Below are positions 5,957-61,225 of a DNA stretch of 64,000 nt, in pieces (position 1 is the stretch's first letter; each line of letters starts with the position of its first letter). The DNA is from Escherichia coli (GTDB taxonomy: Bacteria > Pseudomonadota > Gammaproteobacteria > Enterobacterales > Enterobacteriaceae), in the NCBI RefSeq assembly GCF_013315695.1, contig NZ_CP054353.1, one strand, 5' to 3'. Both the position numbers and the translations under genes were made by a program. Under the pieces are notes generated by a model. It had not been told where the DNA came from and did not search any database. It saw nothing but the letters and a program-made list of their open reading frames with translations.

Positions 5957-5997
5957 ATATGTTGCGGAGGCAAAGCCTCCCGCAACATATCTTTTTC
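5957..5997 (+). terminator. strong hairpin with plus-strand T-tract facing the 3' end of nmpC
   Basis: ATATGTTGCGGAGGC-AAA-GCCTCCCGCAACATAT (15-16 bp stem with one bulge) followed by CTTTTTCG. It lies 18 nt from the nmpC stop. Confidence 0.5.
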
Positions 5998-6007
5998 GTA
6001 AGTCAGA

Positions 6008-7090
6008 TTAGAACTGATAAACCAGACCTACAGCGACGATGTCGTCGGTATCAATACCAGCTGTTTTGGTAAACTTACTATCGTCAATTAAGTTGATTTT
6101 GTAATCAACAAAAGTGGACATGTTTTTATTAAAGTAGTAAGTAGCACCGACATCGACATACTTGACTAAGTCTCGGTCACCATGAACACCAAGGTCTTTA
6201 CCTTTTGACTGAAGGTAAGCAACAGATGGACGCAGACCGAAGTCAAACTGATATTGTGCTACTGCTTCAAAGTTTTGTGCTTTGTTTGCAATATGGTTAT
6301 TACCAAAAACGGTCATATTCTGAGTTTCAGAATATGTGGTAGCCAGATAGATATTGTTCGCATCATATTTCAGGCCTGCAGCCCATACTTCCGCATTTTT
6401 GCCGGAGGCATTGAATTTGCTCTTACCATAGGCGACCTGACCGTCAGTGCGATCTGATTTAGCATAGGTTGCACCCACGCCGAATCCTTCATACTCATAA
6501 GTAGTGGAGAAACCGAAACCATCACCATTGGCTTCAGTTACGTCAGTGCGGTCATTTTTACCCTGATACTGAGCAGCAAAGTTCAGGCCATCGACCAGAC
6601 CAAAGAAGTCGTTGTTACGATAAGTTGCAACACCAGTAGTGCGACCAGTCATGAACACATCTGTTTGGGTCCAGGTATCACCACCGAATTCTGGCAGGAC
6701 GTCAGTCCACGCACCGATGTCGTATGCTACACCGTAGTTACGGCCGTAATCGATTGAGCCGTAATCACCAAATTTCAGGCCTGCAAATGCAAGACGGGTT
6801 TTGTCTTTGGAAGAACCTTGAGATTCAGCACGGTTGCCTTTGAATTCATATTCCCACTGACCGAAACCAGTCAGTTGATCGTTGATTTGGGTTTCACCTT
6901 TGAAGCCAAGACGGGCATAAGTAGTATCACCATCATCTGCATCATTAGAGGAGAAGTAGTGCTTGGCATTAACTTTCCCGTATAGATCCAGCTTGTTACT
7001 GTCTTTATTATAAATTTCAGCTGCCTGAGCAGACATCGCCATCAGTACTGATGCAGCTACAGCAGAAATTGCCACTGTTAATTTTTTCAT
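6008..7090 (-). CDS. nmpC: OmpC/OmpF-family general porin NmpC (intact)
   Basis: Track ORF 6008-7150. Start placed at [23 protein letters not shown] (signal peptide). Porin hallmarks [16 protein letters not shown] and C-terminal ...VAVGLVYQF. Confidence 0.9.
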
Positions 7091-39788: not shown

Positions 39789-40679
39789 TTAATACTCGAG
39801 AATGCCGTGCGCGACGGGCAAATAGCGCAGAGAGAAATAGAGCGTGTCTTTACCGCAAGAGGAACGTTTCGCTAACAGCGAGGCAATTTCTGCGTCCGGT
39901 TTCGGTTTCGCTGTAAAGGTTTTGCCTTTGCCGGCGACAAACAGTTCATAAACAATGCCGCTTGCTGGGGCGGAGCTTTGGCAATCGGCGCTGGCCTGTA
40001 GATAACGTTCACGCTGTTCAGCGGTCAGTTTATCCACGCCGCTGCCATCCTGTACCCAGACATTAACGCCGGTTGCTTTAACGTGTTCCAGCAGTTGGCG
40101 ATAGCCATCGGGCGACATGTTTCCGGCGAAAAAACTACTGATATAAACCGGTTTTGCTGAAACATCGCTAATCAACCGCTGCGCGTTGTTTAACCATGTT
40201 AGCAAAGGCTGACGGGCGGCTTCGCTGCGCCAGTTCAGGTCGTCAATTTCCGCGCTGATGTACCAGCCATCCGGCGTTACGCCAGGTACGGCGCTCCATA
40301 ATCTGGCTTGCTGGAGATCGGCAGCCAGCAGGCGGTTAAGATAGCTTTCCAGCGCTGCAGACGACTGTTTCTGGTGCATAAAAAATTCCGGATCGGCATT
40401 CAGCCCGACAATCAGCTTCAGGCCAGCCTGTTGCGCAGCTGCGGCACGCTTAAACAATAACGCGCGCTGTTCTGGCTGGGTGAATGCATCGCCGTAACGA
40501 GTCCATTGCAAAACCAGGGTATCGAAGCCTTGCAAACGTAACTGACTCATCAGCCCCTGCCACTGGGTATCGGTAACCTGACTATCACGGTTTTGTGGTT
40601 GCCAGATAATACCTTTCATCGCAAAGGAAAAAGGGCTGACCAAAAGCAGTGTCAGCAATACGAAAATGAACTTACGCAT
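39789..40679 (-). CDS. ybcH: periplasmic protein YbcH (third gene of the nfrB-nfrA-ybcH operon)
   Basis: 296 aa. Signal peptide MRKFIFVLLTLLLVSPFSFA. Its ATG (40677-40679) abuts the nfrA stop (40680-40682). Confidence 0.85.
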   Translation of the reverse strand: MRKFIFVLLTLLLVSPFSFAMKGIIWQPQNRDSQVTDTQWQGLMSQLRLQGFDTLVLQWTRYGDAFTQPEQRALLFKRAAAAQQAGLKLIVGLNADPEFFMHQKQSSAALESYLNRLLAADLQQARLWSAVPGVTPDGWYISAEIDDLNWRSEAARQPLLTWLNNAQRLISDVSAKPVYISSFFAGNMSPDGYRQLLEHVKATGVNVWVQDGSGVDKLTAEQRERYLQASADCQSSAPASGIVYELFVAGKGKTFTAKPKPDAEIASLLAKRSSCGKDTLYFSLRYLPVAHGILEY

Positions 40680-43652
40680 TTACCAGTGCACTCCAATGGT
40701 GAGAAACGCGTTGTTGCGCTCTCCGTTACGTTGATTAATCGCCTTAAAGGTATGTTGATACTCGACGCCGAGACTGACTTTGTGCGGCCAGGCGTCGTAG
40801 TGCGTCTCGCCGGTCCAGATATTCCAGCGGACCCCGACTCCGCCAAGCTGCGCGCCCTGAGTGCCTTTATCACGATAGCCGTTGTCCTGAACGTGAGCGT
40901 AAGGCTCAATAGTCTGTCCGTTAGCCACCTTCTGATGCCAGCTGACGCGATAATCTGCCGTCCACGCCTGAATATCCTGGCGGACATATTGCGCCGCATC
41001 GAGGTACAGGTTTTGGGCAAACCAGCCTGAACCGTTCGGGTGCCATTCGTCGCTGTATTTGCCGCCATTAAAGAATGAGGCGCTGGCGCGCAGCATGGTA
41101 TCGGATGCGCCATTTTGGCCGTTCAGCGGCAACTGCTGTTCGACGGCGAGGAAAAAGATCTGATCGCGCAGCGGCTTCCAGCGCAGACCGGTGCCGGACA
41201 TCGGATTTTTCACCGGCATCATCACCCCGTTTTCACCGGTATCGGCAAATACACGGCTGTAAACCGAGAGCAGGTCGCCTTCCAGCAGCATATTGCGTCC
41301 GATGCGGTACTCGGCTTCCAGTTGCCCGTAGCTACGATAGCTTTTCCCTGGCGCTGCGCCGCCGACATTATTGTTAGCGGTACTCATTGCGCCGGAACGC
41401 AAGCCGATAGAAGAATCGAAACTGAACGTCCAGCGGCGACCGACCTCCTCATGCAGACGGCGGAAATTGAAGCGTTGCTGATTTTGCTCTGGGGTCAGTG
41501 GGGTTATCAGCGCCTGATTATCAATGTCATCAATCACCAGCCGGGCGTAGTGCTGCGTCGCAGGCATGTCATCCAGACGCTGGTTCACGTAGGCCAGTTG
41601 TCGGATAAGTGCCGGATCGTCCGGTAGCCCTTTATGCGCCTGTTCGAGCATTTTCCGCGACTGTGCGATATCACCGCTATCCCACAAGGCGTAACCGAGC
41701 GCTGCCTGGGTGTTGCTATTATTCGGTTCCAGTTCCAGCGCGGCGCGCAAATCACTCACCGCCGCCGGGACATTATGACGTTGGCGATAAATTGTCGCCC
41801 GCGCAACGTAAGCGTTGGCAGAAGGCGCAATATTGATTGAGCGCGTGAGATCGTTCAGTGCGAGTTCCGGCTGACCAGGAATGTAACGTTGCGCATGCAG
41901 CCACCTGTAGAGGGCATTGTTTCCCAGCCCACGTTGTTCTGCCTGCTGAAGCCAGCGATCGCGAGCCGCACCATTTCCTGCCGCCTGGGCGGTATTGGCA
42001 GCAGCAAGCAGATCCTCATTGCTCATGTCGTGAAGACTGATTTTCTGCCAGGCCGCCAGTGCGGTGGCGTAGTCCTCAACCTGATACGCCTGATAGGCTA
42101 CCGCACGATGTTGCCAGGCGTTCGGTTGTCGTTGTTCGGCCTGAAGCCATGCATACAACGCCACACCGGGTAGCGTGTCCCGATAACACTTTGCCAGACG
42201 GTTCCAGGCGGCGGCATCGTAGGAAGGCGACATATCGCCCAGCAAGCGAACTATTGCCGGGCAATTATCTGCAATACCCGGCAACTGACTTTGCCACTGA
42301 CGTTGCTCCGCCAGCGGTAAGGGTTTCGATAAAATCGCCACCTTCGCCGGCGTTGCCAGGTAAGGATGACTTTCCAGCAGAGACGCCAGTTGCGCCATTA
42401 ACGTCTGGCTGACACGCGCATCGCCCTGGAAAGGATAGCGTTGCAGCAATAAATCGGCAGCTTCGCGTGACTGCTCGTTCTGCATCAGTTGCCAGGTCAG
42501 TTGATCCAGGCGGGTAAGATTTGCCGGTTCTTGCTGATACAGCAATCGTGCCAGACGCAGAGCTTCAGCCTTGTTATGGGTCGCTACGCTAACGGTATAA
42601 CGCTCCTCAAGCATTTCATTGGCGGGGAGGGTGGCGAGCAGTTTTTGCGCTGCGTCGTACTGACCTTCTTTTAACAGCACCGGTAGCGTCGCGCCAACAA
42701 CATACTGGCGGTTATCGGCAAACTGTACCGTATAATTCGCCAACGCCTGAACGGGGTTGACGCTGTATTTAGATAACAGATAGAGCCAACTTTTCTCTTG
42801 TGCGTCCGTGGTAAACAGCGGCTTATTTTCAATGAGATAACGCTGGAGGCGTGCTTTTTCGCCACGATAAGCCAGCGCGGTCGCGTAAGTAATATATGAC
42901 TGCGGATCGGTGAAGATCCCCTGTGATTGCAGCGCCAGGATCCGATCGTCCAGCTGCCCGGCAAGAAGCACATCAAACCACTGGCGGCGTTCTGCCGCGC
43001 TTAATGTGTTCTGCTGGCGTGCTTCATTGTATAGCGTATCTGCCTGGGACCATTGTTTCAGGTAGATTGCGCGTTGCAGCAGATCGGTTCGCAGCGTTTT
43101 TCCTTCCGGCGATGCAGCAAACGTCGCATCGTTTAGTTGCGCTCTGGCGACAGGTAATTGTGCCAGCCGCAGGGCATTCTGCCCGACTTCACTGCGACAA
43201 CGCAGGGTCGGCGCAGCATCGCACGCTTTTTGCTGGGCAAGCAGTTCTTCAACAGTCGTAACGCTTTTCACTTCAACTGGAATAGCCGCCAGACTGCGCT
43301 CAAGCCGGTCATCTCCTGGGTGACGTTTCAGTTGATCCTCAAGCAACAGCCGCGCCCGGTCATCATGACCAAAATGGCGATAGGCTTCCGCAAGGTATAA
43401 AGTTAGTGGAATATTATCCGGCACCTGTTGGTGTATATATTCAAATTCGCGGATGGCGGTTGCTTCGTCGTTATTTTTCTGTGCCTTCAGCGCCTTGTCG
43501 AGACGGGGATAAATAACGAAATGGCGATAATCGCTCAGCCCCAGCTCTTCTGCGCTGGTGCCGATATTGTCTGCGAGTGCGCTGGTACTCAATAAAGACG
43601 TCAGCAGTAAACCAGACCATCCGATGACGCGATTAAGGTTATTCTCCTTCAT
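40680..43652 (-). CDS. nfrA: outer-membrane TPR + beta-barrel protein NfrA (PgaA/BcsC-like exopolysaccharide porin; phage N4 receptor component)
   Basis: Track ORF 40680-43673. Start set at MKENNLNRVIGWSGLLLTSLLSTSALA (990 aa, the K-12 length). Long TPR-like N-terminal region and a C-terminal barrel ending AFLTIGVHW. Confidence 0.9.
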   Translation of the reverse strand: MKENNLNRVIGWSGLLLTSLLSTSALADNIGTSAEELGLSDYRHFVIYPRLDKALKAQKNNDEATAIREFEYIHQQVPDNIPLTLYLAEAYRHFGHDDRARLLLEDQLKRHPGDDRLERSLAAIPVEVKSVTTVEELLAQQKACDAAPTLRCRSEVGQNALRLAQLPVARAQLNDATFAASPEGKTLRTDLLQRAIYLKQWSQADTLYNEARQQNTLSAAERRQWFDVLLAGQLDDRILALQSQGIFTDPQSYITYATALAYRGEKARLQRYLIENKPLFTTDAQEKSWLYLLSKYSVNPVQALANYTVQFADNRQYVVGATLPVLLKEGQYDAAQKLLATLPANEMLEERYTVSVATHNKAEALRLARLLYQQEPANLTRLDQLTWQLMQNEQSREAADLLLQRYPFQGDARVSQTLMAQLASLLESHPYLATPAKVAILSKPLPLAEQRQWQSQLPGIADNCPAIVRLLGDMSPSYDAAAWNRLAKCYRDTLPGVALYAWLQAEQRQPNAWQHRAVAYQAYQVEDYATALAAWQKISLHDMSNEDLLAAANTAQAAGNGAARDRWLQQAEQRGLGNNALYRWLHAQRYIPGQPELALNDLTRSINIAPSANAYVARATIYRQRHNVPAAVSDLRAALELEPNNSNTQAALGYALWDSGDIAQSRKMLEQAHKGLPDDPALIRQLAYVNQRLDDMPATQHYARLVIDDIDNQALITPLTPEQNQQRFNFRRLHEEVGRRWTFSFDSSIGLRSGAMSTANNNVGGAAPGKSYRSYGQLEAEYRIGRNMLLEGDLLSVYSRVFADTGENGVMMPVKNPMSGTGLRWKPLRDQIFFLAVEQQLPLNGQNGASDTMLRASASFFNGGKYSDEWHPNGSGWFAQNLYLDAAQYVRQDIQAWTADYRVSWHQKVANGQTIEPYAHVQDNGYRDKGTQGAQLGGVGVRWNIWTGETHYDAWPHKVSLGVEYQHTFKAINQRNGERNNAFLTIGVHW

Positions 43653-45651
43653 TTTCGGACTCCAGTTGCGCAACCTGTTCTGTGTTTAAACCTGCTTTGA
43701 GTAATAGTGATTGCATCGAAACTTGTAATTCGCGTTGAATTGTCAGGACGCGATCCAACGTTTCCTGGCTGATAACGCCTTCGGTGACCAAAAACTTGCC
43801 GAGCGGCAGAGAACTGCGTTCATGGCGCAATAACAACACGTTAATTGCTGAACGATTAATATGACCGAGCGTGGTCAGTATTTCGGCGAACAGGAACTGA
43901 TGCGGCACATATTGCCGCCAGATTTCACCGGCCTGCTGTTCCGTGAGCCACTGATGCTGAACTGCATTGTACAACATTGCCCGCGGATCGTGACCGCGTC
44001 GGCGTGCATACCAGTGGCGTAATCCGGTGACAATTTGTCCCCGCAGAACAATGACGTAACGCACTTTGCGTCCGACTTTACGCGTCAGGGCCGCCAGCGA
44101 AACCGGGTCAATACCATCTTCACTGCCGACAATTAACTCATCATTGTCCAGACGCAGCGGCAGTACCGCATAATGCAGCGCCACGGAGGCCGGCATTTCG
44201 GCAATCAGCGAGGAAGGGATCTGCCAGGCATCGATGGATTCCCACGCCACTCGACGCGGATCGCCGTGTTGAAGTACCTGTTTTAACGCGCGCCAGTTGG
44301 CCATGAAGTTAATCAGGTTACCCCAGAAAAGACGCAGGACAGATAGCAGCCCCTGCGTCAGACCGTAGTAGCCAGTGACAAAAATCACCCGCTGCACGAT
44401 GCGGTTAACCATCAAACCAAAGTTTAGCCACAGCAGGGTCATTAACCATGCGCTGCCGCTGAAAATAGAAAGGAAATGCCAGGCATCGGGCCACAAACTT
44501 TCATACGCCAGTAACAGCAAAAGCTGGATCATCACCAGCATCGCGAGGAAGCTGACAAAGTTACTGATTGCCCCTTTGCGGTCGCGCCAGAGAAAGTAGT
44601 TCAGCGTCAGGCTGGAGGTCCATTTGTGGGTTTTAAAGCCCTGGAAAACAATGCCGATGATCCAGCGAGATTTTTGTCGAACCGCAGTCGAAAAGGTATC
44701 GGGGAAATATTCGCGCACGCAGATCATGTTTGACGTCCGTGCGTGCTGTAAAAATTTACGCTGCTCGCGTTCTTTGGCTTCGTCCACCACCGGAAAACGG
44801 ACAAAAATTTCCGTCATACCTTTTTCTTTCAGGCGGAAGCCAATATCGTAATCTTCAGTCAGACTCTGCACGTCGAAAGCAATACCGTCACCGTCAGCTA
44901 ACAGAGCGGTCACGGCGCGGCGGCTGAAACAGGTGCCGACGCCTGCGCTGGGCACTTGTCCGGCGAGGGCTTCACGCACCGGAACATCCTTGCCATGCAG
45001 TTCTGAAAACTCATCAATGTAAGTCATGCTGGTGAAGTGCGTCCATTCGCGTTCGAACGGATACACTGGGATCTGAATCAGATCTTTACGCTCGACCAGA
45101 TAGTTGAACAGACGCAATTCCATCGGTGAAATCACATCTTCGGCGTCATGCAGAATAAAACCAGCAAAAGCGAAATTGGCGCTACGTTCAAATTGGGTGA
45201 TGGCGTCCAGCACGTTGTTCAGACAGTCGGCTTTGCTGGTGGGGCCAGGACGCGCGCAGACTACCTTATGCACGTTCGGGAAGCGAGCGCACACTTCGTC
45301 AACATCACGCTGAGTATCGGGGTCGTTGGGGTAGGTGCCAACAAAGATATGATAGTTTTCGTAGTCGAGCGTGGTCGCCGCCAGCTCGGCCATATTGCCG
45401 ATGACGCCCGTTTCATTCCACGCCGGAACCATAATCGCTAACGGTTTTTCATCTGGTTTATACAGTTCGCGGTAACTCATTCGCGGGTAGCGGCGATAAA
45501 CACTCAACTTGCGTTTAATGCGGCGTACCCAGTAGACGACATCAATAAAAAAATCGTCCAGCCCGCTGATGAACATGATGACCGCTAACGTTATCGCGAT
45601 TACTTTTAAGCCGTAGAGCCAGGTAGCAAAAACATCAAGAAGCCAGTCCAC
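43639..45651 (-). CDS. nfrB: inner-membrane family-2 glycosyltransferase NfrB with a C-terminal MshEN-like domain; 670 aa here
   Basis: N-terminal TM. GT2 motifs LHDAEDV, LTEDYD and RQKSRW, plus further TM segments. C-terminal LPLGKFLVTEGVISQETLDRVLTIQ motif. The stop overlaps the nfrA start by 14 nt. Confidence 0.9.
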   Translation of the reverse strand: MDWLLDVFATWLYGLKVIAITLAVIMFISGLDDFFIDVVYWVRRIKRKLSVYRRYPRMSYRELYKPDEKPLAIMVPAWNETGVIGNMAELAATTLDYENYHIFVGTYPNDPDTQRDVDEVCARFPNVHKVVCARPGPTSKADCLNNVLDAITQFERSANFAFAGFILHDAEDVISPMELRLFNYLVERKDLIQIPVYPFEREWTHFTSMTYIDEFSELHGKDVPVREALAGQVPSAGVGTCFSRRAVTALLADGDGIAFDVQSLTEDYDIGFRLKEKGMTEIFVRFPVVDEAKEREQRKFLQHARTSNMICVREYFPDTFSTAVRQKSRWIIGIVFQGFKTHKWTSSLTLNYFLWRDRKGAISNFVSFLAMLVMIQLLLLLAYESLWPDAWHFLSIFSGSAWLMTLLWLNFGLMVNRIVQRVIFVTGYYGLTQGLLSVLRLFWGNLINFMANWRALKQVLQHGDPRRVAWESIDAWQIPSSLIAEMPASVALHYAVLPLRLDNDELIVGSEDGIDPVSLAALTRKVGRKVRYVIVLRGQIVTGLRHWYARRRGHDPRAMLYNAVQHQWLTEQQAGEIWRQYVPHQFLFAEILTTLGHINRSAINVLLLRHERSSLPLGKFLVTEGVISQETLDRVLTIQRELQVSMQSLLLKAGLNTEQVAQLESENEGE

Positions 45652-60004: not shown

Positions 60005-61225
60005 TCAGTACGCCATATTCAGTTTCCCATAGTGGAACATAACTCCCAGTTTAAAGCGTTCCCGGTTTCGGTATCCCCTGGCCTTTATCCTCAGCAGTCT
60101 GATCTTGCTGTTCAGCGCCTCCGCATTTCCATTCGAGACGCGATGACGCATTGCATTCAGTATTCCGTATAACCGTTTTTTAATGGTTTTCGCTGCGTTT
60201 TTCATCATCGGCACATCACATTCAGACGCCAGCGATATCCACTGCAACCAGTCATTCCTGCGTTCTGTGCTCCAGGGGCGATCCCAGATATTTTTTGCCA
60301 GCTCTTTCAGTGTCCAGCACTGGCTTGTCTGTTGCATCTGTTCCCGCAACCACATCAGCTTTTCCTGCCGGGACTCAGTCATCCATTTGTCGCTGTACTG
60401 CCACAGGAAGCGGGTACCTTTGGCCTGACGACGACTTTCAACAGGGAGGTGCGGATGTTCATTCTGGCGGGTTTTATCAACCACTTCGCCCAGTTGCTTC
60501 GCCACATGGAAGCGATCGAAGGCGATTTTCTCGACCGCATTGGGTAAATGGATACGCGCTGCTCTTATATAGCCCGCATTCATGTCCATCGACAGTGTTT
60601 TGATGGCCAACAACTGACTGTCAGTAAGCGAACGGAGATAGCTGGCAAGACTCTCTGTGCCACGATCATCGGTTAATGCCAGTGCCCGCCCGTCGCGATC
60701 AGATACCACGGTTATATACCTATGCCCTTTTTTAAAGGCGACTTCGTCTACATTCATATGACGCACTGATAAAGGCTTTTTAATCCGCGACAGGCCTCGC
60801 TTAACCGCGCGGGTCATGATGCCGTCAACGGCATTCCAGCTAAGTTTAAGTTGTTTTCTGACCGCATCAACGGTGCTGATTTTAAGCCATGAGAGCACGA
60901 ACGATTCGAACAGCAGAGTGTACCGACTGCCGGAACCTGCCCACGGTACAGGCAGAGTCTGGCAGCCATGCTCCGGGCACATAACGCGGGGAACATCGGC
61001 TTCTACTAATGTCATGAACTGGCAGGTATCAAGGTGGCGCCATTTACGATGTCGGTGATCGTGAACAGAACAGGATTTCCTGCAGGTCGGACAGGTTAAC
61101 TGAGTATTTTCAGCAATTCCGACTGTAACAGTAACGGAACCTGCATTTTCATCGAGGGTAAGGGATTTAACCTGCCATGGTGCAGTCAGGTTAAGGATAT
61201 GGGCATAGAGGGATTTTTCGTCCAT
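60005..61225 (-). CDS. ISL3-family DDE transposase
   Basis: 406 aa. N-terminal zinc-finger (CPTCRKSCSVHDHRHRKWRH...CPEHGC) followed by a DDE_Tnp_ISL3-like body. Confidence 0.9.
   Translation of the reverse strand: MDEKSLYAHILNLTAPWQVKSLTLDENAGSVTVTVGIAENTQLTCPTCRKSCSVHDHRHRKWRHLDTCQFMTLVEADVPRVMCPEHGCQTLPVPWAGSGSRYTLLFESFVLSWLKISTVDAVRKQLKLSWNAVDGIMTRAVKRGLSRIKKPLSVRHMNVDEVAFKKGHRYITVVSDRDGRALALTDDRGTESLASYLRSLTDSQLLAIKTLSMDMNAGYIRAARIHLPNAVEKIAFDRFHVAKQLGEVVDKTRQNEHPHLPVESRRQAKGTRFLWQYSDKWMTESRQEKLMWLREQMQQTSQCWTLKELAKNIWDRPWSTERRNDWLQWISLASECDVPMMKNAAKTIKKRLYGILNAMRHRVSNGNAEALNSKIRLLRIKARGYRNRERFKLGVMFHYGKLNMAY

Follow-up and report, generated by a model that had tools for sequence, protein, structure and literature searches.

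Recurrent loss of the MshEN_N subdomain from the Escherichia coli glycosyltransferase NfrB, and its probable silencing of N4 glycan receptor synthesis

How does an E. coli strain come to carry an nfrB gene that is 75 codons shorter than that of K-12, and what can the shortened protein still do? The question arises in a stretch of 64,000 nt from contig NZ_CP054353.1 (assembly GCF_013315695.1), here called the window, in which nfrB encodes a protein of 670 amino acids (aa), whereas the K-12 gene (b0569) has 2238 nt and encodes 745 aa, the length that an initial annotation, made from the letters alone, had correctly given. NfrB lies in the inner membrane and, together with NfrA and YbcH, makes and exports a glycan based on N-acetylmannosamine (ManNAc), the N4 glycan receptor (NGR). 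It is the glycosyltransferase (GT) of the NfrBA-YbcH exopolysaccharide system of E. coli K-12 and is activated by cyclic di-GMP (c-di-GMP; PMC8669469, PMC8669472). We show that the window allele arose by deletion between short direct repeats and that the deletion took away exactly the subdomain that carries the canonical c-di-GMP-binding site, and we suggest that it probably leaves the enzyme inactive. The argument starts from two features.

43639..45651, minus strand: nfrB, short allele, 670 aa; GTG start; stop overlapping nfrA by 14 nt; equal to NfrB minus residues 468-542.
44240..44250, minus strand: deletion junction, the one remaining copy of the 11-bp repeat GTGGCGTGGGA, encoding V-A-W-E/D; from the gap scan against SMS-3-5, with the sequence verified.

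Short and long alleles share the same GTG start, and a difference in annotated start site was rejected on these grounds. Used as a query, the window nfrB matches nearly every other complete E. coli genome in two pieces spanning 2238 nt, and a gap scan against the closest full-length allele, that of SMS-3-5 (3 nt different), gave a single in-frame gap of 225 bp and nothing else. The full-length allele has two copies of GTGGCGTGGGA, at gene nt 1402-1412 and 1627-1637; as a result, the position of the gap is ambiguous over 11 nt, and the missing peptide, VAWDKTTHDFPSVTGDTRSLRPLGQILLENQVITEEQLDTALRNRVEGLRLGGSMLMQGLISAEQLAQALAEQNG, can be given as aa 468-542 or, equivalently, as aa 471-545. Residue 467 is fused to residue 543 in the short protein, whose translation (open reading frame (ORF) list) reads ...LQHGDPRRVAWESIDAWQIPSS... 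around the junction; a longer stretch of it reads ...QHGDPRRVAWESIDAWQIPSS... The repeat has 13 bp in K-12 and is broken by one mismatch in Nissle 1917. With identical short repeats bounding the deleted segment in the long allele and one copy left in the short one, the locus bears the marks of a slippage-type deletion at a direct-repeat hot spot, the most likely mechanism being replication slippage or another microhomology-mediated deletion. The initial annotation had proposed just such a deletion and had set the missing segment between two VAW tripeptides. Its coordinates for the VAW codons of the junction (44242-44250) are exact, both tripeptides prove to be encoded by the 11-13-bp repeat, and the gap count against full-length nfrB, a single internal gap, bears the proposal out.

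The lost residues contain two 24-residue MshEN motifs, RPLGQILLENQVITEEQLDTAL (aa 488-511) and RLGGSMLMQGLISAEQLAQAL (aa 517-540), and these are indeed the paired L-G-x-x-L-L...L-x-x-x-L motifs, forming a tandem MshEN c-di-GMP site, that the initial annotation had placed in this segment. The MshEN_N module comprises 53 residues. Full-length NfrB aligns over residues 488-623 with residues 8-145 of Vibrio cholerae MshE (VcMshE), and also with the N-domains of PilB and PilF. Residues 1-64 of VcMshE form the four-helix MshEN_N, which makes almost all contacts with c-di-GMP, and residues 65-145 form MshEN_C; isolated MshEN_N (1-62) binds c-di-GMP, even more tightly on its own (PMC5013675). By the alignment and these subdomain limits, the deletion comprises exactly the linker and the complete MshEN_N. 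On the left it begins where the conserved GT and transmembrane (TM) core ends, matches of distant homologues to the query ending at about residue 472. The NCBIfam model NF053729 ('c-di-GMP_motif') matches long NfrB at 489-540 with 66.2 bits, a match that is gone in the short protein, and the canonical MshEN_N site, defined by two 24-residue motifs of the form RLGxxLLxxGLLxxxxLxxxLxxQ with a 5-residue spacer, is absent from it.

All the NfrB residues that have been probed by experiment for c-di-GMP-dependent function (L490, G491, L505, L509, L518, G519 and L537) lie inside the gap. The substitution G491L abolishes N4 infection, G519S reduces it and L490A/L537A is additive, with protein levels unchanged in these mutants, and a fragment spanning NfrB 414-745 binds c-di-GMP with a dissociation constant of ~1 uM (PMC8669469, PMC8669472). 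Judged by its sequence, short NfrB should be unable to bind c-di-GMP at the canonical site.

What is retained matters as much to the argument as what was lost, and comprises three annotated parts.

44506..45444, minus strand: family-2 glycosyltransferase domain, aa 70-382 (Pfam PF13632, 1.8e-40; PF13641, 2.7e-35).
43993..44244, minus strand: MshEN_C alpha/beta subdomain, aa 470-553 of the short form, in which it follows immediately on the GT/TM core (PF05157, 52.4 bits versus 23.1).
43735..43884, minus strand: second, degenerate MshEN_N-like two-motif module, aa 590-639 of the short form and 665-714 of the full-length protein, EILTTLGHINRSAINVLLLRHERSSLPLGKFLVTEGVISQETLDRVLTIQ (NF053729, near the cut-off).

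The short protein has the DxD, TED and QxxRW signatures of a processive family-2 GT, and the motifs HDAED (D169), TED (D267) and QKSRW (W330) are intact, both in a check of the SMS-3-5 allele and in the window translation. The TM region and the C-terminal tail are also kept. AlphaFold2 (AF2) models show the same MshEN_C pattern of strands and helices in the long and short forms, with block means of the predicted local distance difference test (pLDDT) of 58-81 over residues 471-550. The AF2 alignments held only 12-13 closely related sequences and left the GT domain at pLDDT ~25-50, which is unusable; we restricted the use of these models to C-terminal secondary structure (pLDDT ~60-87).

The C-terminal module deserves separate mention. 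It scores 37.2 bits on NF053729, against a cut-off of 38, its best stretch (590-639) covering profile positions 4-53 of 53, and by phmmer it resembles the c-di-GMP-binding domains of Thermus thermophilus PilF. Its second motif, LPLGKFLVTEGVISQETLDRVLTIQ, is canonical. Its first motif has F663-A664 in place of L-G, and this pair is invariant in 12 aligned enterobacterial homologues. BLASTP found no alignment between the canonical and the C-terminal module, and their relationship rests on the profile matches. The NfrB 414-745 fragment of the published binding assays contains both modules.

That the gene is nfrB, with 670 aa and the normal N and C termini, is a reading of the initial annotation that is borne out by the locus, the operon and the score on a hidden Markov model (HMM). 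Two further genes of the operon are annotated in the window.

40680..43652, minus strand: nfrA, outer-membrane export component with tetratricopeptide repeats (TPR) and a beta-barrel, 990 aa; intact by annotation and translation.
39789..40679, minus strand: ybcH (DUF4434), third gene of the operon, 296 aa; intact by annotation and translation.

The operon nfrB-nfrA-ybcH, adjoining cusS and including the 14-nt overlap of nfrB with nfrA, is thus preserved by annotation and translation, and the 150 nt upstream of nfrB show 2 differences to SMS-3-5 and likewise 2 to K-12. The short protein narrowly passes the cut-off of the NfrB equivalog HMM NF008411, scoring 1186.8 bits in two stretches against 1170, versus 1330.6 for the long form. 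Taken together, these features point to nfrB, and we would class the window allele as a natural variant of a known system, one with a deletion in the regulatory domain. The gene is 100% identical to JMX41_RS18895 (WP_021563101.1) on the chromosome of E. coli MSB1_4I (NZ_LR898874.1), a strain from a rectal swab taken in Australia, in which the short nfrB likewise stands between cusS and nfrA-ybcH-envY-ompT. RefSeq/PGAP names the short proteins only 'glycosyl transferase family protein' (WP_021563101.1, WP_016235928.1 and WP_096943844.1), and surveys of nfrB by name will therefore miss them. We found no description of the short allele in the open-access literature.

The long form is ancestral. 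The deleted segment is present in 5,053 of the 5,426 complete E. coli genomes and also in homologues of 742-745 aa from Citrobacter, [Enterobacter] lignolyticus and Franconibacter, in which residues 464-480, R488, P489, G491, L518, G519 and L537 are invariant. To count short alleles we used junction probes of 43 nt and 41 nt, the second added for K-12-type backbones, that find at most 27 contiguous matches in long alleles; a 100-nt junction query was set aside, as it merged two half-matches in full-length genes into one place. The probes match five of the 5,426 complete genomes, a lower bound because junctions with the GTCGCG variant (that of locus L015) escape both. The five carriers are MSB1_4I, the United Kingdom blood-culture isolates AF3, AF10 and AF14, and the bovine isolate USDA-ARS-USMARC-51408 from Kansas, and so span Australia, the United Kingdom and the USA. 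In a collection of 15 billion proteins, the exact short protein (P0001) occurs on 330 contigs, two close 670-aa variants on 233 (P0003) and 104 (P0014), and there are ~45 further 670-aa variants, including entries labelled Shigella boydii and O146:H21. The allele that the initial annotation had marked out for a survey of E. coli genomes is thus rare among complete genomes and present on hundreds of draft contigs. Versions of the short protein that are truncated or shifted at the N terminus (P0048, P0049, P0054, P0070 and others) are mostly singletons, and we did not count them as evidence of decay.

The DNA recovered for short alleles falls on three backbones that lie 29-35 nt apart, each only 0-4 nt from a full-length allele outside the gap. 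The first, to which the window belongs, is 2-4 nt from SMS-3-5; the second is identical to K-12 nfrB; and the third is identical to a common allele of which complete genomes hold 100%-identical long copies. Single-nucleotide polymorphisms (SNPs) specific to a backbone flank the repeat at distances of 1 nt on its left side and 25-94 nt on its right, which makes recombinational transfer of one ancestral deletion implausible. The L015 and L016 alleles have a common backbone and are distinguished by a single base, inside the repeat, as expected from two different crossover points. Carriers of the K-12-type nfrB come in two contexts, one with a K-12-identical nfrA and cusS upstream, the other with an nfrA that differs by 28 nt and an RHS or insertion sequence (IS) element upstream. 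We conclude that the deletion has occurred independently at least three and possibly five times. As a separate observation, in one carrier lineage (L013 and L014, 1-2730) the cus genes were not found upstream of nfrB, where the end of an RHS/PAAR toxin gene, two small ORFs and an IS4-family transposase stand.

The 670-aa allele is one of many natural lesions of the Nfr system. L012 (5000-7972) and USDA-ARS-USMARC-51408 (L020 5615-8586, NZ_CP104114.1) combine the K-12-identical nfrB with a 1-nt deletion at nt 2078 of nfrA, a frameshift, annotated as such, that ends the ORF after 705 aa. In this K-12-type lineage the Nfr system has therefore been struck twice. Among public proteins there are other natural in-frame deletion alleles of nfrB (P0055-P0066, P0089-P0095, P0102-P0103, P0046, P0067, P0072, P0079-P0084, P0096 and P0113), of which the repeat boundaries were checked for those of 653 and 585 aa. 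The 653-aa allele has a 10-mer repeat at 1296/1572 and is found on three protein backbones, and it therefore also looks recurrent; the 585-aa allele has a 12-mer repeat at 1164/1644. In this way, natural deletion alleles (585, 670 and 653 aa) have come from three of nfrB's four longest direct repeats. MshEN_N is removed in the 666-, 643- and 640-aa alleles as well, and a 622-aa NfrB keeps both motifs and has lost MshEN_C. An allele of 656 aa, on >65 contigs, is without the D169 catalytic region, and those of 681, 682, 644, 674, 662 and 690 aa have deletions within GT or TM parts. Several complete E. coli genomes (H47, H121-H128) have an nfrB split by IS1, IS3-family or ISVsa5 insertions, and in 334 of the 5,426 nothing matches nfrB. 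Spontaneous phage-resistant mutants also map to nfrB (W391*, N357A; PMC12548472). The many direct-repeat deletions and IS insertions suggest that natural E. coli frequently lose the Nfr system. The recurrence on several backbones, the restriction of the deletion to exactly one subdomain, the surviving second module and the wealth of natural nfrB lesions all go beyond the initial annotation.

What, then, would the short protein do? In the reading that we prefer, the 225-bp deletion between 11-13-bp repeats joins the end of the GT/TM core directly to MshEN_C; NfrB without MshEN_N would not receive the c-di-GMP signal derived from DgcJ, and the short enzyme would stay catalytically off. Carriers would make no NGR glycan, would resist N4 and the other phages for which NGR is the way round the O-antigen, and would lose the NGR-dependent brake on motility. 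The recurrence of the allele would reflect a mutational hot spot, and its persistence in hundreds of isolates would mean that cells can do without NGR or even gain from losing it, plausibly under phage pressure. Our confidence in this chain, from an enzyme that is probably not activated, through the absence of NGR, to carriers resistant to NGR-dependent phages, is moderate. The initial annotation had offered, conditionally, a synthase uncoupled from c-di-GMP or blind to it; a short NfrB that is blind and inactive seems more likely to us than one that is uncoupled and active. The off state is predicted because G491L, in the same bundle, leaves the protein level normal yet abolishes N4 infection, and loss of function would fit the nfrA frameshift in the K-12-type lineage, the GT-region deletions and IS insertions in nfrB, and the spontaneous phage-resistant mutants that map there.

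Several points weigh on the other side. The off state is extrapolated from point mutants, and these cannot separate activation by a liganded bundle from inhibition by an apo bundle; under the latter, excision could switch NfrB on. The large F-type lineage, a label by which we mean only an nfrB allele closest to that of SMS-3-5, keeps the GT motifs, nfrA, ybcH, the reading frame and the nfrB-nfrA overlap, none of which a simple null needs. A second MshEN_N-like module survives, less than one bit below the cut-off of the curated c-di-GMP-motif model. Many NfrB-like synthases of other bacteria consist of the core only (460-500 aa), and the core is therefore not intrinsically MshEN-dependent. Finally, repeat-driven mutation and drift alone could have produced the distribution of the allele, without phage selection.

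This last point amounts to an alternative about the evolutionary cause and not about the molecular effect: the short allele may be a neutral hot-spot polymorphism, generated by slippage at the 11-13-bp repeat and spread by hitch-hiking, with NGR dispensable in the host niche. The deletion alleles at three of the four longest repeats, the rarity of the short allele among complete genomes, even as a lower bound, and the complete lack of nfrB in 334 of them all agree with neutrality. Yet mutations to phage resistance are proven to strike nfrB (PMC12548472, PMC8669472), and neutrality is not separable from selection with these data. We regard it as quite possible, leaning slightly away from it.

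As to the molecular effect, it is possible, although unlikely, that the synthase has been rewired, the excision of MshEN_N either relieving auto-inhibition or handing control to the second module, such that NGR is made independently of the DgcJ/PdeL circuit. Were this true, the parallel, subdomain-precise deletions would reflect selection for a deregulated glycan and not loss of a receptor. We consider it distinctly unlikely that short NfrB is constitutive, that is, that apo MshEN_N normally auto-inhibits the GT, much like the PilZ-gated resting state of the cellulose synthase BcsA, and its excision leaves the enzyme always on, over-producing NGR regardless of DgcJ/PdeL. Such a state would accord with an excision that is clean, keeps the frame, takes out one subdomain and starts exactly at the conserved core end (~residue 472), with the intact GT motifs, nfrA, ybcH and translational overlap of the main lineage, and with the stand-alone core-only homologues that exist as curated families, and the point mutants do not discriminate activation from relief of inhibition. 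However, NGR made all the time would render cells more sensitive to N4-type phages and hamper their motility (PMC8669469), and with these costs the expansion to hundreds of isolates is less likely. In addition, nfrA is also lost in one carrier lineage, and clearly inactivating deletions and IS insertions hit nfrB in other strains, and loss is therefore the common natural outcome.

Could the retained C-terminal module (665-714) instead bind c-di-GMP itself, such that regulation is kept, perhaps with altered affinity? Its near-threshold score, its likeness to the PilF domains, its canonical second motif, its strong conservation and its presence in the assayed fragment all speak for this. Nevertheless, its first motif has F-A and not L-G, and in VcMshE the equivalent glycine changes G11L and G40I leave the melting temperature unresponsive to c-di-GMP, consistent with lost binding (PMC5013675). 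Moreover, G491L alone is enough to abolish N4 infection in the full-length protein, and the C-terminal module therefore cannot replace the first one. Given also the missing BLASTP alignment between the two modules, we find a short NfrB that still responds to c-di-GMP very improbable. That 225 bp were lost in assembly, or that K-12 carries an insertion into an ancestral short form, we dismiss, since assembly collapse is not possible at an 11-bp repeat, the junction is common to five independently assembled complete genomes from three countries and to hundreds of contigs (the exact protein being on 330), the closest long alleles differ from short ones by only 0-4 nt outside the gap, and the segment with its invariant motif residues is found in other genera.

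If the preferred reading of a blind and inactive synthase holds, the short allele has practical consequences. With NGR as receptor, N4, Bas69 and the Vequintavirinae/Justusliebigvirus phages Bas60-62 can get past the O-antigen; their host range is very broad as a result (PMC11990801), and this makes them attractive for therapy. The short allele, found in bloodstream and gut isolates, probably silences NGR synthesis and would be a simple genotype marker of predicted resistance to NGR-dependent phages, a marker that its generic annotation name hides.

Elsewhere in the window, a lambdoid prophage (~2086-35524) occupies the tRNA-Arg/DLP12 position, with intD adjoining tRNA-Arg. It has a near-complete set of head and tail genes, an Ail/Lom gene, an IS1A copy, several tail-fibre fragments near ompT and an extra ompC-like porin gene (~5964-7046). 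An ISL3-like ISEc53 transposase gene (60005-61225) adjoins a ClbS/DfsB-family gene between hokE and ybdK.

Comparison with known systems places the short allele closest to E. coli K-12 NfrB (b0569), with which it shares the gene, the locus cusS-nfrB-nfrA-ybcH-envY and the operon structure. The GT motifs, TM region, MshEN_C and C-terminal tail are identical, with 29 nt differences outside the gap; the window allele differs in having no residues 468-542, that is, no linker and no MshEN_N with its two 24-residue motifs. The two-subdomain layout of an MshEN_N bundle followed by MshEN_C is shared between NfrB and the MshEN domain of V. cholerae MshE (PDB 5HTL, PMC5013675). In Xanthomonas campestris XpsE, binding is lost by substitutions within an intact bundle (PMC5013675), whereas in short NfrB MshEN_N has been excised and MshEN_C orphaned. 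Like NfrB, BcsA with its PilZ domain is an inner-membrane processive family-2 GT with a C-terminal c-di-GMP receptor domain and a dedicated local cyclase (PMC8669472); unlike NfrB, it has a receptor of the PilZ and not the MshEN fold, and auto-inhibition is established for BcsA and not for NfrB.

The core-only NfrB-like synthases (NCBIfam NF011305/NF011307, PRK14716; 460-500 aa) resemble what the deletion leaves of the enzymatic half, residues 17-481 of short NfrB scoring 449 bits on NF011305 against a cut-off of 409, and many of their representatives end where the deletion begins. These proteins belong to other genera and have no C-terminal domains, whereas the window allele, which has only recently arisen from a regulated enzyme, still has MshEN_C and the tail. 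The nearest engineered counterparts are the NfrB mutants G491L, G519S and L490A/L537A, which target the identical bundle and lose or reduce N4 plating while keeping the protein level. In these mutants the apo bundle stays in place, whereas the natural allele removes the bundle altogether, and it can therefore distinguish an activation from an auto-inhibition model where the point mutants cannot. We suggest that the short allele is a natural tool for telling activation of NfrB by liganded MshEN from its inhibition by empty MshEN, and for finding out if nucleotide is bound by the conserved second MshEN_N-like module.

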